Of a stretch of DNA of 64,000 bases, positions 4,704-29,407 are shown piece by piece (position 1 is the stretch's first letter; every line of letters begins with the position of its first letter). Position numbers and translations under genes: made by a program. Below the pieces are notes generated by a model that searched no databases, was not told where the DNA came from, and saw only the letters and a list, made by a program, of their open reading frames with translations. This DNA comes from Lachnospiraceae bacterium (GTDB lineage: Bacteria; Bacillota; Clostridia; Lachnospirales; Lachnospiraceae), in contig JAGAOO010000006.1 of the NCBI GenBank assembly GCA_017623675.1, forward strand, positions 16,355-80,354, written 5' to 3'.

Positions 4704-5284
4704 ATTAAATTAAGGTTTAGCGCAATACCTGCGACCGCGGTTTTGTGGATATATATTCCCGCACGACACGCTTGCGCTCCAGCCAGCACGTAACGGTACG
4801 TAAGGCTGTGCATCACAATTATTATGTTCTCTCCTCACAAAGCACAGCCTAAGTACCGACGTGCTTCTAAGGTCGTTGCGGAAACATATACCCTCAAAAC
4901 CGCTGCTGTAGGAATGGACAAACCTATAATTTATATTGGGGAAAGTAGTATGGCTCCGCGAGGATTAAACGTTACCACAAACGTTATTGTTTACGTAATT
5001 ATACGCATTGTCAACATTATGGTATCATTGTTTTCGTATGCATTGATACCTTACGCGGAGCAGTACTTTGCTTCCTATATAAATTATGGGTCATTTCGTA
5101 CAGTTGGCTACCGGTTTCTGGTGATAGATAGTTGCAAGCAGACCTTAAAAGCACGTTGGTGCTTAGGTGCGGTGTTGTCGCACCTTATGCACCATTACGT
5201 GCTGACCGGAGCGCAAGCGTGTCTGCGGTAACTATCTGTCATCAGAAACCGATAAAGCGACTAAACCAACAAACCATAATTTAT
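4704..5284 (+). ncRNA. Large structured non-coding element, copy 1 (unclassified; candidate ornate ncRNA or structured MITE)
   Basis: Second copy at 38439-38991 (reverse-complemented). Nested long helices: 4923-4941/5072-5090, 5113-5133/5230-5250, 4765-4780/5208-5223. G-T wobble positions occur only on the + strand. Compensatory substitutions separate the two copies. The overlapping ORF is not conserved in copy 2. Confidence 0.65.
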
Positions 5285-5365
5285 TGCATTCTCCTCTCAA
5301 TAGCGATACAATAGAGCCAGTGTGACAGTCTATGACTGCAAGTATTAAAAATAAGGAGATTACAT

Positions 5366-6553
5366 ATGTTATCACAACACTATATTGATATGACTTCTCA
5401 AAAGTCAGCGATTCGTGAACTTTTTGATTATGGCTCCAAGCGGGCACAGGAAATCGGTTATGAAAATGTATTTGATTACAGCTTAGGTAATCCAAGTGTA
5501 CCGACTCCACAGGCATTTACCGATGCTTTGTTAGATTTAATTCAGAACACAGACCCGGTAAAGCTTCATGGCTACAGCCCAAGCCTTGGTATTCCTTCCG
5601 TTCGTCAGGCAGTTGCAGATTCCCTGAACCAACGGTTCGATATGAATTTTAAAATGGAAGATATCTTCATGGCAGTGGGTGCCGCCGGTGCCATTGCACA
5701 TGCGGTTCGTGCAGTGACTGTACCGGGGGACGAGGTCATTACCTTCGCTCCATTTTTCCCGGAATATTATCACTATGTTAATCAGACCGGTGCTGTTCTA
5801 AAGGTGGTTCCTGCTGACATTACCAGCTTCCAGATTAACTTCGAGGCCTTTGAAGAAATGATTACACCAAAGACCATGGCAGTCTTAATCAACACACCGA
5901 ATAACCCGTCCGGCATTGTGTATTCCACCGCCACCATTGATAAGCTGGCAGCTATTTTAACCGCAAAATCAAAAGAATACGGTCATGAGATTTACATTAT
6001 TTCCGATGAACCTTATCGTGAAATTGTTTTTGCCGGTGTAGATGCACCATTTGTTGCCAAGCACTATGACAACACGATTATCTGCTATTCCTTCAGCAAG
6101 TCCATCTCCCTCCCCGGAGAACGTATTGGCTATGTTGCCGTTAATCCAGCCTGCAAGGATGCTGCATTAATAGTAGACATGTGCGGACAGATTTCCAGAG
6201 GAATCGGGCACAATTGTCCACCTTCTCTGATTCAGCTTGCCGTAGCAAGAGTATTGGATATGACCTCTGATATTTCTGTATATGAGACAAATAAGAACAT
6301 TCTTTATCGGGAATTAACCCGAATTGGTTTCGAGATTGTAGAACCGGGCGGAACCTTCTATATGTTCCCGAAGGCATTGGAAAAAAATGCGGCTGCCTTC
6401 TGTGAACGGGCAAAGCAGCATGATTTGTTACTGGTTCCGAGTGACTCTTTCGGATGTCCGGGACATTTCCGCATCTGCTATTGTATTCCTACAGAAAAGG
6501 TAGAGCGTTCCATTCCGGTATTCGAAGCATTGGCAAAGGAATATTTGGGATAA
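5366..6553 (+). CDS. Class I/II pyridoxal-phosphate-dependent aminotransferase (aspartate/aromatic type)
   Basis: 395 aa with NTPNNPSG and the PLP-lysine motif SFSKSISLPGERIGY. SD AAGGAGA upstream. Confidence 0.8.
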   Translation: MLSQHYIDMTSQKSAIRELFDYGSKRAQEIGYENVFDYSLGNPSVPTPQAFTDALLDLIQNTDPVKLHGYSPSLGIPSVRQAVADSLNQRFDMNFKMEDIFMAVGAAGAIAHAVRAVTVPGDEVITFAPFFPEYYHYVNQTGAVLKVVPADITSFQINFEAFEEMITPKTMAVLINTPNNPSGIVYSTATIDKLAAILTAKSKEYGHEIYIISDEPYREIVFAGVDAPFVAKHYDNTIICYSFSKSISLPGERIGYVAVNPACKDAALIVDMCGQISRGIGHNCPPSLIQLAVARVLDMTSDISVYETNKNILYRELTRIGFEIVEPGGTFYMFPKALEKNAAAFCERAKQHDLLLVPSDSFGCPGHFRICYCIPTEKVERSIPVFEALAKEYLG

Positions 6554-24313: not shown

Positions 24314-25117
24314 TTATAAATTTCCTGCTATATAATCCTTTAAAACAGCCAGAAATTCTCTGGTATAATTGGTCGGTATCAGCCACCAGACAGATTTAGC
24401 AGGATTAGCAGAAACCTTCTGATAACCACAACCTTTAGCAAGCTGCACCGCTCGAAAAATATGAAAATCCGTTGTGGTTATTACTACGGATTGCGTATCC
24501 ACTTTGAAAAGCTCTGAAGCAAATAGCAGATTCTCTTTGGTGCTGGTAGACGACTCTTCCATTATAATACGGTCCGGTGCAATTCCCTGCGCCACCAGTT
24601 CATTATAAATGCATTGTGCTTCCGAAATTCTTTCATCTGTACCCTTGCCTCCACTGGCAATTACCATTGTATCCGGATTCTGTTTCAAATATTCCACTGC
24701 CGCATCAATCCGATATTTTAATATTAGAGAAGGCTGGGTTCCGTTTACTTTGGCTCCCAATACCAACAGATAATCCGCATTTTCCTCCGGCTTTCCTTTT
24801 CCATTGTGTATGATAATGGCTTCTATCACAATAAACAGCAGGAACCCGGCACCCACTATAAGCTCTACCGGTATCACTACCCATTTGGGTGGAATCTTCC
24901 CGTTTCCGGCATACTTACATATCAACAGTATCAAACCACTGCACAGAATTGCCAATAGCAGCCAAACATAATTAAAGGTACTCGCCGGTCCCAGCATCAG
25001 GAATATAAATATGAAATATATCAGACTACACCCGCCAATTACAGCCAGCAGGCCAATCCAAAACTTATATACTTTGCCCATTTTTTCATGCTCCTTTTTA
25101 TCGATTTCATTATCCAT
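24314..25117 (-). CDS. YdcF/DUF218 (ElyC/SanA-like) membrane-anchored protein
   Basis: N-terminal TM helices followed by a DUF218-like LLVLGAKVNG...IASGGKG...TTDFHIFRA. Confidence 0.7.
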   Translation of the reverse strand: MDNEIDKKEHEKMGKVYKFWIGLLAVIGGCSLIYFIFIFLMLGPASTFNYVWLLLAILCSGLILLICKYAGNGKIPPKWVVIPVELIVGAGFLLFIVIEAIIIHNGKGKPEENADYLLVLGAKVNGTQPSLILKYRIDAAVEYLKQNPDTMVIASGGKGTDERISEAQCIYNELVAQGIAPDRIIMEESSTSTKENLLFASELFKVDTQSVVITTTDFHIFRAVQLAKGCGYQKVSANPAKSVWWLIPTNYTREFLAVLKDYIAGNL

Positions 25118-25281: not shown

Positions 25282-25310
25282 TTGACGTGTATACAATATG
25301 CATTTATAAT
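25282..25310 (+). promoter_or_regulatory. Sigma-A-type promoter upstream of the PFL locus
   Basis: TTGACG (25282-25287), 17-nt spacer, TATAAT (25305-25310), about 70 nt before the ATG. Confidence 0.55.
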
Positions 25311-25378: not shown

Positions 25379-27418
25379 ATGGGTTCTGAATGGAATGAAT
25401 TTGTAGGTGGCGAGTGGCAGAAAGTCGTTGACGTAAGAGACTTTATTCAAAAGAATTACACTCCATATGAGGGAGACGATGCTTTTCTTTGCGGACCTAC
25501 ACAGGCAACAAAAGACTTATGGGCACAGGTACTTGATTTATCTAAGAAGGAAAGAGAAGCCGGCGGTGTTTTGGATATGGATACCAAGGTTGTTTCTACT
25601 TTAACATCACATGGTCCTGGTTACCTTGACAAGGACAAGGAAAAGATTGTTGGTTTCCAGACTGATAAGCCTTTCAAGAGAGGTATGAATGTATACGGTG
25701 GTATCCGTATGGCTATGAAGGCTTGTGAAGATAATGGTTATAAGGTAGATCCTGAAATCGTTGAGTTCTTTACAACACACAGAAAGACACATAATGCCGG
25801 TGTATTCGATGTTTATGATGATGAAATCAGAAGATGCCGTACCAACCACATCATCACCGGTTTACCAGATGCTTATGGTCGTGGACGTATCATCGGTGAC
25901 TACAGAAGAGTTGCTCTTTATGGTACAGACTTCTTAATTAAAGACAAGAAAGCACAGAAGGAATCATTTGGTAACGTTTATACTGATGATGTTATCCGTG
26001 GCAAGGAAGAAATCGCTGAGCAGATTCGTGCTTTACAGGAATTAACCAAGATGGCTGCATCTTATGGTTTTGATATTTCTAAGCCAGCTTCAAATGTACA
26101 GGAAGCAATTCAGTGGACATACTTCGGATACTTAGGAGCAGTTAAGGAGCAGAACGGTGCAGCAATGTCCTTAGGACGTACCGCTACTTTCTTAGATATC
26201 TATGCTGAGAGAGACTTAAAGAATGGTAAATTTACTGAAGAAGAAATTCAGGAAATGATTGACCATTTCGTAATGAAGTTAAGACTTGTTAAGTTTGCTC
26301 GTACTCCAGAGTACAACCAGATTTTCGCTGGTGACCCTGTATGGGTAACTGAATCATTAGGTGGTATGGGTGTTGACGGACGTACCTTAGTTTCTAAGAT
26401 GAGCTTCCGTTACTTAAATACTTTGAATAACTTAGGTACCTCACCAGAGCCAAACATGACTGTATTATGGTCTACCAGACTTCCAATGGGTTGGAAGCAG
26501 TTCTGTGCAAAGATGTCTATCAAGTCTTCTTCTATCCAGTATGAGAACGATGACTTAATGAGACCTTTACATGGTGATGACTATGGTATCGCATGCTGCG
26601 TATCTTCTATGGTTATCGGTAAGGAAATGCAGTTCTTCGGTGCTAGAGCAAACCTTGCTAAGTGCTTACTGTATGCTATCAACGGTGGTGTTGATGAATG
26701 TACCGGTGTACAGGTTGGCCCTAAGTATCGTCCAGTTGAGGGTGATGTCCTTGACTATGATGATGTAATGGCTAAGTTCGATGATATGATGGAATGGTTA
26801 GCACGTGTATATGTAAGTGCTTTGAACATCATCCACTATATGCACGACAAGTATGCTTATGAGAGAATTCAGATGGCATTACATGACAGAGATGTTAAGA
26901 GATACTTTGCAACCGGTGTTGCAGGTCTTTCCGTAGTAGCTGACTCATTATCAGCAATCAAGTATGCAACTGTTAAGCCAATCCGTAACGAGCAGGGTAT
27001 TGTTGTAAGCTATGAAACAACTGGCGACTTCCCTAAGTATGGTAATAACGATGACCGTGTTGACTCAATCGCAACTCAGATTGTAACAACCTTCATGGAT
27101 AAGCTTCGTAAGCACCATGTATACAGAAATGGTATCCCAACACAGTCTATCTTAACCATTACTTCTAACGTAACATATGGTAAGAATACAGGTGATACTC
27201 CATGTGGTAGAAAGCACGGTGCACCATTTGCTCCAGGTGCTAACCCACTTCACCAGAGAGATACTCACGGTGCTGTCGCTTCTCTGTCTTCAGTAGCTAA
27301 GATTCCATTTAAGGATGCTCAGGATGGTATTTCTAATACCTTCACAATCATCCCAGGTGCTCTTGGTAAGGAAGATCAGATTTTCGCTGGCGACATCGAT
27401 ATCGATTTAAGCAAATAA
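25379..27418 (+). CDS. pflB: Pyruvate formate-lyase core, lacking the C-terminal glycyl-radical domain
   Basis: 679 aa with active-site ...[10 protein letters not shown]... and ...PGALGKED. It then ends in a 12-aa tail and a stop where normal PFLs continue into the Gly-radical domain. Confidence 0.9.
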
Positions 27419-27463
27419 TTGGCTGACTTATAGTCCGCTATTTCAAACCAAGGAGGTTTTAAT

Positions 27464-27679
27464 ATGGGCGATAAATTAAGTACAGTCGATGACATTGTAT
27501 CAATGTTAGACAATATGATGGGGAATGGCCACGGACATGTAAATGTGTCCGTGGAAGACCCAAACGGTTCCTTAGATAAAGCAGTTGAAACCTTGGGTTG
27601 CACAGATTGTGCAAAAGGAGATCTGGCTTGTCAGGTACCAACCTTAATGGAAGGTATGGATGAGGAACTAAAAAAGTAA
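27464..27679 (+). CDS. Small protein, partial paralog of the start of the PFL glycyl-radical domain, with a Cys-containing tail
   Basis: 71 aa. SD AAGGAGG lies 7 nt upstream. VDDIVSMLDNMMGNGHGHVNVSV parallels [23 protein letters not shown] of the next ORF. The tail contains CTDCAKGDLAC. Confidence 0.55.
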   Translation: MGDKLSTVDDIVSMLDNMMGNGHGHVNVSVEDPNGSLDKAVETLGCTDCAKGDLACQVPTLMEGMDEELKK

Positions 27680-27724
27680 CAATCATATATTATTCAATTA
27701 TATTAAAATTAGGAGGTAATTATT

Positions 27725-27964
27725 ATGGCAGCAACACAGCAGGTTGATAACTTAGTAAACATGTTAGACGGATACGTTTCTAAAGGCGGATATCACTTAA
27801 ATGTAAACGTATTGAACAGAGATACTTTACTTGATGCTCAGAAGCATCCAGAAAACTATCCACAGTTAACAATTCGTGTATCTGGATATGCAGTAAACTT
27901 CATCAAATTAACTCCAGAGCAGCAGAACGACGTTATCTCAAGAACATTCCACGAGGCTATGTAG
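27725..27964 (+). CDS. Free-standing glycyl-radical domain (GrcA/YfiD-like autonomous glycyl radical cofactor)
   Basis: 79 aa. SD TAGGAGG lies 7 nt upstream. ...[35 protein letters not shown] carries the RVSGYAV radical-glycine motif. Confidence 0.9.
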
Positions 27965-28049
27965 TCTAGCTACAAGCCATGCAAAAATAGCAGCTATTGG
28001 TCAAAGAGTGTGCTTGCACACTCTTGACTGATGGCTGTTATTTTTATAC

Positions 28050-28239
28050 GGCGACAGCCGTCTACCGAGTCGTAACGAAGTGAAGACGAGGTAGTGCATG
28101 GCTTGTAGCATGTGGGCGACAGCCGTCTACCGAGTCGTAACGAAGTGAAGGCGAGATAGGCATGGCTTGTAGCATGTGGGCGACAGCCGTCTACCGAGTC
28201 GTAACGAAGTGAAGACGAGGTAGTGCATGGCTTGTAGCA
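28050..28239 (+). repeat. Tandem intergenic repeat array (3 units, 65/64/61 nt)
   Basis: GGCGACAGCCGTCTACCGAGTCGTAACGAAGTGAAGACGAGGTAGTGCATGGCTTGTAGC occurs three times with starts at 28050, 28115 and 28179. The period is not a multiple of 3. Confidence 0.9.
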
Positions 28240-28366
28240 ATCTTAGGAAGCATGCTTGCAACCAGTACCTAACAGTTGCCTTTCTCCCTTTAACAGGTGT
28301 ATAATAAACATGGTTTAAAGTTGAATAAGATCATAATTAAAATATTTTACTTTAGGAGGAATTATT

Positions 28367-29128
28367 ATGATTGGACATATACATTCTATTGAAACCTTTG
28401 GTACCGTAGATGGCCCTGGTACCCGATTCGTTGTATTTTTTAAGGGTTGTCCTATGCGGTGTGCCTACTGCCATAACCCTGACACTTGGGAATTAACTGG
28501 TGGCGAGGACAAAACCGTAGAAGAGATTTTAGATTATTATGACCAAAACAAAGAATTCTACATGAATGGTGGCGGTTTAACTGCTACCGGTGGGGAACCA
28601 TTGGTTCAGATTGATTTTCTGATTGAATTATTCACACAAGCAAAAGCCAAAGGAATTCACACATGTCTGGACACTTCCGGTATTATGTTCCGCAGAAACG
28701 AGCCAGAGGTTCTTGCCAAATTTGATAGACTTTGCAAGGTAACCGATTTAGTCATGCTGGATATTAAGCACATTGATCCGGAAGGGCACAAGAAACTGAC
28801 CAAACAGCCAAATGACAATATTCTTGACTTTGCCAAGTATCTGGCAGAACAGAATATTCCTATTTGGATTCGCCATGTCATTGTTCCGGGCATTACCGAT
28901 CAGGAAGATGAATTAACCCGTTTAGGTTATTTTATCGGCGGTTTACCGAATTTAAAGGCATTAGACGTGCTTCCGTATCATACAATGGGAGAAGCAAAGT
29001 ATAAAAAATTAGGAATTGATTACCCATTAGAGGGTGTGCCTGCATTAACCAGCAATGAAGCTATTATTGCCAAGTCACATATTATAGACGGAATCAAGAA
29101 ACGCAGAAGTGAATTAGCAGCGAACTAG
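28367..29128 (+). CDS. pflA: Pyruvate formate-lyase activating enzyme (radical SAM)
   Basis: GCPMRCAYCHNPDTW CxxxCxxC motif; 253 aa. Confidence 0.93.
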   Translation: MIGHIHSIETFGTVDGPGTRFVVFFKGCPMRCAYCHNPDTWELTGGEDKTVEEILDYYDQNKEFYMNGGGLTATGGEPLVQIDFLIELFTQAKAKGIHTCLDTSGIMFRRNEPEVLAKFDRLCKVTDLVMLDIKHIDPEGHKKLTKQPNDNILDFAKYLAEQNIPIWIRHVIVPGITDQEDELTRLGYFIGGLPNLKALDVLPYHTMGEAKYKKLGIDYPLEGVPALTSNEAIIAKSHIIDGIKKRRSELAAN

Positions 29129-29236
29129 CATGTTGGCGAAATTTTGACATTTTTCCTAAAAGTTCTACTTGCTATAATGCATAAAAAGGCTTAAAATCAA
29201 TTTATGATGATGAAAAAATAAGGAGGATTTACGTTA

Positions 29237-29407
29237 TGGCATTCGTTATTTCTGACGCTTGTTTATCATGTGGTGCTTGTGCCGGCTCTTGTCCGGTTGG
29301 TGCTATCTCTGAAGGTGATGGACAGTTTGTAATCGATGCAGATACCTGCATCAGCTGTGGTTCTTGTGCTGGTTCTTGTCCGGCAGGAGCAATTTCAGAA
29401 GAGTAAT
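29237..29407 (+). CDS. fdx: Clostridial-type 2x[4Fe-4S] ferredoxin
   Basis: Own translation (below the ORF-track cutoff): MAFVISDACLSCGACAGSCPVGAISEGDGQFVIDADTCISCGSCAGSCPAGAISEE. SD AAGGAGG upstream. Extended -10 TGCTATAAT at 29170-29178. Confidence 0.9.

Follow-up and report, generated by a model that had tools for sequence, protein, structure and literature searches.

We examined a 64,000-nucleotide (nt) stretch of contig JAGAOO010000006.1 from a gut Lachnospiraceae bacterium (the window) and found a locus that is likely to encode a functional, naturally split pyruvate formate-lyase (PFL). Three open reading frames (ORFs) on the + strand within 25379-27964, here called L, M and S, are each separately translatable. 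L would be the catalytic large subunit, S the subunit that bears the glycyl radical and M an accessory protein. Judged from the sequence, this three-piece layout appears to be a working design rather than a broken gene, and it is kept in well over a hundred species.

Division of the enzyme between L and S

The features of the locus, all on the + strand and with the evidence for each in brackets, are the following.

25379..27418, +: L, PFL catalytic large subunit, 679 amino acids (aa), without a glycyl-radical loop (Pfam, TIGR01255, alignment with Escherichia coli PflB)
26594..26599, +: catalytic Cys-Cys dyad, L residues 406-407, equivalent to E. coli C418/C419 (ACCVS at 405-409, codons TGCTGC)
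27377..27415, +: conserved L tail, residues 667-679, extra relative to canonical PFL (kept in 80/80 loci)
27464..27679, +: M, conserved small protein, 71 aa, putative pseudo-radical-domain accessory (own Shine-Dalgarno (SD) site AAGGAGG; conserved family)
27479..27553, +: M N-terminal half STVDDIVSMLDNMMGNGHGHVNVSV, paralogue of the helix and strand beta10 that open S (hhalign, DNA repeat, tblastn)
27596..27670, +: M C-terminal Cys module GCTDCAKGDLACQVPTLMEGMDEEL (C46, C49, C56 and H25 invariant in the clade)
27725..27964, +: S, stand-alone glycyl-radical subunit, 79 aa (Gly_radical positions 51-106, PflB 683-759, GrcA3 model)
27884..27886, +: radical glycine codon, S Gly54, equivalent to E. 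coli G734 (RVSG54YAV; PflB alignment)

L scored 718 bits against the Pfam PFL-like model PF02901 (residues 19-601) and 1094.7 bits against the NCBIfam PFL equivalog TIGR01255 (cutoff 994.2; model positions 2-664 of 744), and E. coli PflB residues 9-681 align with it. By all three comparisons L has the ten-stranded PFL-like barrel, and its Cys-Cys dyad is invariant in 25 homologues. The glycyl-radical loop RVSG[YF] is missing from L, which ends at position 664 of 744 in TIGR01255 and at position 50 of 106 in the Pfam Gly_radical model; the loop sits on the separate protein S instead. Lengths run from 679 to 705 aa in the 120 closest homologues of L, so none of them carries a radical domain. The loop is absent from L in these homologues and in more than 160 loci.

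S aligns with E. coli PflB 683-759 and holds the glycine loop, strand beta10 and both helices. The motif RVSGYA is present in 81/81 S orthologues, and AGGAGG lies 8 nt before the S ATG (7 nt if the SD site is taken as AGGAGGT). L and S jointly cover E. coli PflB 9-759 with nothing lost, and the 106 positions of the Gly_radical model are divided between them, with positions 1-50 on L and 51-106 on S. L and S therefore equal one canonical PFL that is cut just after ALGK(D/E)D, at about E. coli residue 678. An earlier note on this DNA had described a 679-aa ORF with ACCVS that stops at 27416-27418 (a TAA) and a 79-aa radical-domain ORF with its own SD site, and both descriptions hold. The same note had placed the break where the GrcA/YfiD proteins begin to align with PFL; the actual break is about 15-20 residues further upstream, given that S 20-78 corresponds to GrcA 68-126 and that YfiD 61-127 shares the fold of PFL 693-759 (PMC8683613).

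The 13 residues that end L had been described as an unrelated tail, which proved to be wrong. The sequence ALGKEDQ[VI]FAGD[IL][DE][IVL]DL[SN]K, or a near variant of it, is found in 80/80 related genomes, and the signature ALGK[DE]D-x-[IV]F-x-GD-[IL]-[DE] in 107/120 more distant truncated PFL C-termini. The tail is acidic and amphipathic, with alternating hydrophobic and acidic residues (F-A-G-D-I-D-I-D-L), and it aligns with the tail of the PDB entry 38lb. Its hexapeptide QIFAGD (L 667-672, 27377-27394) repeats an internal PFL motif at residues 314-319 (26318-26335), and the DNA of the two copies is identical at 17/18 bases. The E. coli counterpart of the internal motif is presumably ELFSGDPIW, and Oscillospiraceae tails retain a GDP triplet (IFIGDPDMD). 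The repeat could be an internal duplication or a mimicry of an active-site strand.

In GenBank, S is MBO5237255.1, 'autonomous glycyl radical cofactor GrcA'. It passed the GrcA3 model NF038360 narrowly (160.9 bits, cutoff 158; model positions 2-78 of 78) and fell below the classical GrcA model TIGR04365 (99.9 versus 170) and the GrcA2 model (110.4 versus 145). The NCBI name 'autonomous glycyl radical cofactor GrcA/GrcA3' agrees with another reading, in which S is a GrcA-type spare part for a full-length PFL encoded elsewhere and L is an inactive or differently functioning remnant. The search for PFL sequences covered the 64-kb window, which also leaves space for such a partner. We nevertheless regard this explanation as very unlikely. 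A spare part serves a full-length PFL that has been cleaved at its radical glycine, whereas the partner at this locus is L, which is without the radical glycine throughout the loci and homologues examined. L also retains the catalytic dyad and exceeds the PFL equivalog cutoff, and its C-terminus has a ratio of nonsynonymous to synonymous substitution rates (dN/dS) of 0.10. L, M, S and the activase gene pflA form one tight cluster, and no other PFL or radical-domain sequence, including a second intact pflB, was found within the window. Finally, classical GrcA/YfiD proteins are about 127 aa long with a disordered N-terminal half; the 79-aa S does not match this architecture and is without the ∼60-residue YfiD half that is needed to recognise oxygen-cleaved PFL.

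Conservation of the three-gene order

We compared the locus with those of 80 fetched species-level GTDB genomes. The order L-M-S was found in 80/80 species loci, with M always between L and S. These include the cultured Eubacterium ruminantium ATCC 17233 and FB3002, Lachnospiraceae YSB2008 and C6A11, and Clostridium sp. CAG:590, and the L/S split was also seen in 80 further metagenome loci. The earlier note had left it to alignment with related loci to tell a conserved split from a strain-specific lesion, and the alignments show the former. Across the 80 genome loci an SD-like site precedes M in 74 and S in all 80. The gap between L and M varies from 10 to 227 nt and that between M and S from 13 to 130 nt. 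The frame relative to L is spread over all three possibilities (21/28/31 loci for M and 30/18/32 for S). Median dN/dS was 0.10 both for S and for the final 60 codons of L, and 0.16 for M; all three genes are under purifying selection. A permissive Rfam scan of 26800-28500 returned no intron or riboswitch.

The conserved order, the variable gaps and frames, the low dN/dS values and the absence of an Rfam intron together exclude a lesion, an assembly error, splicing and recoding as the source of the split. Assembly error and splicing were the outcomes that the earlier note had listed as able to overturn its reading, and the gaps, the unrelated frames and the Rfam result dispose of them. A lesion in this strain, a fault of sequencing or assembly, or a pseudogene might still be suggested by the fact that canonical PFLs are single chains of ∼760 aa and by the origin of the window in a metagenome-assembled genome (MAG). 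However, the identical architecture occurs in 80 independent species genomes, isolates included, and in hundreds of contigs; each cistron has a conserved stop codon, SD site and ATG; and purifying selection acts on all three. The likelihood of such an explanation is negligible.

L, M and S share a reading frame in the window, with 2 and 3 in-frame stops (five in total) in the intervals between the ORFs. We treated this as a coincidence because the M and S frames vary among relatives. The shared frame would otherwise fit the restoration of a single polypeptide by an intron, protein splicing, readthrough or ribosome hopping, and the T4 nrdD gene, which encodes a glycyl radical enzyme, does carry a group I intron. 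Against restoration stand the five stops, the random frames across species, gaps down to 10-13 nt, the lack of an Rfam intron match and the fact that the intervening DNA codes for the conserved protein M. The tail and M are also too short for an intein and show no intein-like features. We give restoration of one chain practically no weight. Readthrough, considered on account of the shared frame, was rejected since the frames are random in relatives.

The three genes are proposed to be co-transcribed as one operon. A scan of the locus found no terminator-like site between L, M and S, and a promoter-like site lies 5′ of L:

25282..25310, +: promoter-like site TTGACG-17-TATAAT (consensus scan, 11/12 matches; pattern match only)

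Irregular loci were few. In one genome (L034) tblastn recovered the L gene as two pieces, with a frame change near residue 571, and in another (L051) as two pieces with a ∼100-nt insertion or duplication near residues 280-294; both breaks may be MAG assembly errors or local lesions. In five metagenome contigs (L083 at 5001-5758, also L084 and L085 among them) L is reduced to a C-terminal remnant of 118 aa (tail ...PDCAEC), after which comes a 99-aa S, and in contigs of this type an opposite-strand gene lies directly 5′ of the remnant. Either a split-PFL locus has decayed or been rearranged in these contigs, or the remnant is a mini-protein.

The small protein M and the cysteine module

The claim that the PFL is divided into two genes was thus right about the separate radical domain, which reflects no lesion (80/80 genomes), and incomplete in its gene count, as the 71-aa M had been missed. 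M is recorded in GenBank as MBO5237254.1, 'hypothetical protein', and has no Pfam, NCBIfam or PDB match. Its homologues form at least 130 clusters at 90% identity, all ∼70 aa long, and 122 GTDB species genomes carry it. Searching 1.84 billion representative proteins with a profile gave 211 clusters at 50% identity, nearly all of 60-90 aa. The residues invariant in the clade include D10, I11, V12, M14, L15, D16, G22, G24, H25, N27 and C46, and further D48, C49, A50, K51, G52, L54, C56, P59, T60 and L61. The core of the broader family is C-x4-6-C-x-[VI]-P-[TN]-L-x-x-G-x-D.

M is a chimera, with a paralogue of S at residues 2-34 and a Cys...Cys-x-[VI]-P-T-L-x-E-G-x-D module at 49-70. In hhalign, M 2-34 matched S 1-33 with a probability of 96.7% (E 3.7e-10). 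The relationship is visible at the DNA level as a repeat, 27485-27511 against 27743-27769, that is 74% identical, and tblastn gave a cross-match between the M and S regions at 42% identity. M 49-70, CAKGDLACQVPTLMEGMDEELK, matched Cys-bearing tails of L with an hhalign probability of 96.8% (E 3e-10). M has three Cys and one invariant His in the clade rather than the four-Cys motif of a [4Fe-4S] protein. We also considered M as a complete but diverged radical domain in which G52 would be the conserved glycine; this was rejected, as G52 varies in the broad family.

The match to L tails indicates that the Cys module can be found on L itself. When the C-terminus of 38lb was used as a query, the search returned 120 short C-terminal PFL fragments rather than full-length proteins, and a radical domain follows in 0/120 of them. 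Their endings fell into the following groups.

Stop after the tail signature and a short tail: 41/120
Longer acidic segment without Cys after the signature: 27/120
Cys...Cys-x-P-[TN]-[LI] module after the signature, e.g. DCLNGACATPTLFEGLDGEDD: 26/120
Other Cys-rich ends after the signature: 24/120
Stop directly at ALGKED, no tail: 2/120

A metagenome scan with the Cys-bearing tails gave 80 loci, and 72 of them encode a stand-alone S downstream of their L. A separate M gene occurs in none of the 72; every match to the M profile was the S ORF or the L tail itself. Three other loci with a Cys-bearing tail (L081, L082 and L092) are likewise without a separate M. In contrast, M is present at every locus where the tail is short or acidic and Cys-free, namely the 80 genome loci together with L090 and L091. 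The Cys module is thus a constant companion of the split PFL, either in cis on L or in trans as M. The cis form is found in cultured species of the human gut: the 'formate C-acetyltransferase' of Enterocloster bolteae, E. citroniae, E. asparagiformis, Coprococcus phoceensis and Dorea sp. D27, 702-703 aa long, belongs to it, and the S of Faecalimonas umbilicata is annotated as GrcA3 in GenBank. In three cis-type loci (L106, L123 and L130) S starts 1-3 nt past the L stop, a spacing that makes translational coupling likely there. Fused L-S forms may also exist in nature.

The distribution of the module bears on whether M belongs to the enzyme at all. M could have nothing to do with PFL and merely accompany the operon, for instance as a metallochaperone, as a regulator or as the peptide substrate of a radical S-adenosylmethionine (SAM) enzyme; it is Cys-rich, acidic, predicted to be largely disordered alone and encoded close to a radical SAM gene. 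However, the radical domain itself is paralogous to one half of M, M always lies between L and S, and in other lineages the Cys module is covalently attached to L and mutually exclusive with a separate M. This cis/trans exclusivity ties the module physically to the C-terminus of L, which is where S must dock. We consider an unrelated M unlikely.

Genomic surroundings, proposed mechanism and comparison with known systems

Two further genes downstream of S are relevant to activation of the enzyme.

28367..29128, +: pflA, PFL-activating radical SAM enzyme (TIGR02493, 296.9 bits, cutoff 231.75)
29236..29406, +: 2x[4Fe-4S] ferredoxin, 56 aa (two CxxCxxCxxxCP motifs)

A dedicated radical SAM activase is thus encoded nearby, and pflA lies no more than 1 kb downstream of S in 56/80 loci. 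Among the 80 loci scanned, 63 gave a full pflA match, and in 43 of these the ferredoxin gene comes immediately after pflA, as it also does in L086-L089; its product is a candidate for the dedicated reductant of PflA.

Between the S stop and pflA are three tandem 64-nt units (28031-28223), bordered by a 15-nt inverted repeat, GCTACAAGCCATGCA (flanks 27969-27983 and 28095-28238). The 36-nt core of the unit occurs nowhere else in the window. The only Rfam match was a sub-threshold one to the Clostridiales-1 RNA RF01699 at 27977-28101 (30.9 bits, gathering score 48). On the 5′ side of the PFL cluster, a ∼70-aa DUF1858 protein and MecA are conserved on the opposite strand (L086-L089), with the equivalent in the window upstream of 24314; we take DUF1858 to be a redox-disulfide-type domain. 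In the lineage of the window, DUF1858 and MecA are separated from L by an inserted DUF218 gene (24314-25117, minus strand).

We propose that L folds as a ten-stranded barrel with the Cys-Cys dyad, ending after ALGKED and the acidic tail, and that S would supply in trans the helix, strand beta10, the Gly-radical finger (RVSG54YAV) and the C-terminal helix. PflA, which probably receives its electrons from the neighbouring ferredoxin, would place the radical on Gly54 of free S. Docking of S would then complete the barrel of L and bring Gly54 beside Cys406/407 to give the active enzyme. S would accordingly be an obligate, exchangeable radical subunit rather than a spare part. After cleavage by oxygen, replacement of the 79-aa S alone should suffice, and the split may in this way make oxygen damage cheaper to repair.

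M copies the S helix and beta10, with its Cys segment standing where S has the Gly finger. Since M combines an S-like helix and beta10 with a Cys segment in place of the Gly finger, a pseudo-radical domain is the most economical model. M, or the cis tail, might occupy or guard the vacant radical-domain slot of L and so control the exchange of S, acting as a placeholder or cap that might depend on thiols or a metal and respond to redox state. We put forward any specific role for M only tentatively. In its most explicit form, which we hold to be possible but doubtful, the Cys module (M here; the L tail in Enterocloster, Dorea, Faecalimonas and Oscillospiraceae) would be an unrecognised regulatory pseudo-radical domain, plugging the vacant slot and the active site through a Cys finger and gating the entry of activated S and the ejection of damaged S by thiol, metal or redox state. 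If so, the split PFL would be a 'radical-cartridge' enzyme with a built-in exchange factor.

Several observations weigh against a functional split PFL with M as its accessory. The search for a full-length pflB spanned the 64-kb window. AlphaFold2 models of the single chains were of too low confidence to place M or the tail of L: L alone gave a predicted local distance difference test (pLDDT) score of 42 with an alignment of 56 rows in which the full-length rows were all at least 91% identical, and M alone, with a 28-sequence alignment, gave 53, with a helix at residues 5-20 as the sole predicted element. Just two Cys of M are kept across the broad family of 211 clusters, which makes a classical four-ligand metal site within a single M doubtful. 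Lastly, deletion of residues 696-733 from E. coli PFL weakened the binding of YfiD (PMC8683613). Docking in trans is therefore not automatically efficient; the L tail, together with M or the cis module, probably offsets the loss of covalent tethering.

The enzyme, its radical domain and its activase are already known, whereas the obligate trans arrangement and the M/Cys-module accessory have not been described in the literature searched. The full-text literature searched, including a June 2026 review of glycyl radical enzymes, held no description of a natural split PFL, of GrcA3 or of M, and a natural split PFL is likewise absent from the aminoacyl-radical-enzyme paper. Current records enter L as a complete 'formate C-acetyltransferase', treat S as a 'spare part' and label M 'hypothetical'. 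S fits the whole of the 78-position GrcA3 model NF038360, but that name implies a spare part, and the annotation flags neither the truncated neighbouring 'formate C-acetyltransferase' nor M. No annotation covers the family made up of M and the cis Cys tail, which numbers 211 clusters at 50% identity and has a clear genomic association. Many gut and rumen Clostridia make acetyl-CoA and formate mainly through PFL. If our reading is right, the glycyl radical of abundant commensals (Enterocloster bolteae and E. citroniae, Dorea, Faecalimonas, Coprococcus and relatives of Eubacterium ruminantium) rides on a small protein that is made on its own and can be replaced.

The best structural matches to L were the PDB entries 38lb and 38la (1118.8 and 1084.2 bits), both 2026 entries named 'Formate acetyltransferase', for which no accompanying paper was located. 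They are other proteins than L, with roughly 70% identity to it. 38lb has 739 residues, including about 20 extra at the N-terminus, and ends in ALGKSGNVMFGECDMCEMKELDDVSKIDFKTVDFTIENKPDCACAADASAKEGCED, a Cys-rich tail of the long Cys-bearing cis type, while 38la ends at ...LGKED. Since it has this tail and lacks a radical loop, 38lb is itself a natural protein of the L type. The PDB copy searched contained no chain resembling S or M.

Small accessory subunits of glycyl radical enzymes are credited with modulating the radical domain. M resembles the beta and gamma subunits of BSS (benzylsuccinate synthase) and the gamma subunit of 4-hydroxyphenylacetate decarboxylase (HPAD) in being a small Cys protein of 60-90 aa encoded beside the catalytic subunit. 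The BSS accessory subunit is reported to regulate thiyl radical formation (PMC12590467). The BSS and HPAD small subunits differ from M in having four-Cys motifs that bind [4Fe-4S] clusters and in not descending from a radical domain; M has 2-3 conserved Cys, is half a radical-domain paralogue and shows no sequence similarity to them in Pfam or NCBIfam.

Class I ribonucleotide reductase (RNR), a member of the same ten-stranded barrel superfamily, also keeps a stable radical on a subunit (beta) apart from the catalytic barrel (alpha), but there the radical is of the tyrosyl/metal kind and the subunit is unrelated. Phage RNR 'genes in pieces' are split through the insertion of homing endonucleases, of which there is no sign here.

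A close parallel is E. coli PflB with GrcA/YfiD, or with Y06I of phage T4, in which a small RVSGYAV protein completes the PFL body by providing beta10, the Gly loop and the C-terminal helix in trans. YfiD and Y06I were the only validated spare-part proteins according to the 2021 YfiD paper (PMC8683613). In that work the PFL-activating enzyme acted on free YfiD, and engineered E. coli PFL(1-695) with YfiD reached wild-type activity once activated, although binding was weaker (PMC8683613, Andorfer et al. 2021). The E. coli body is full-length and uses its spare part only after oxygen cleavage, whereas L never has a radical domain, which would make S obligate; the conserved L tail and the third protein M are likewise absent from the E. 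coli system. The locus described here would thus be the natural counterpart of the engineered truncated PFL (tPFL)+YfiD system, and a model for the exit and re-entry of the radical domain, the repair of oxygen damage and the accessory control of radical transfer.

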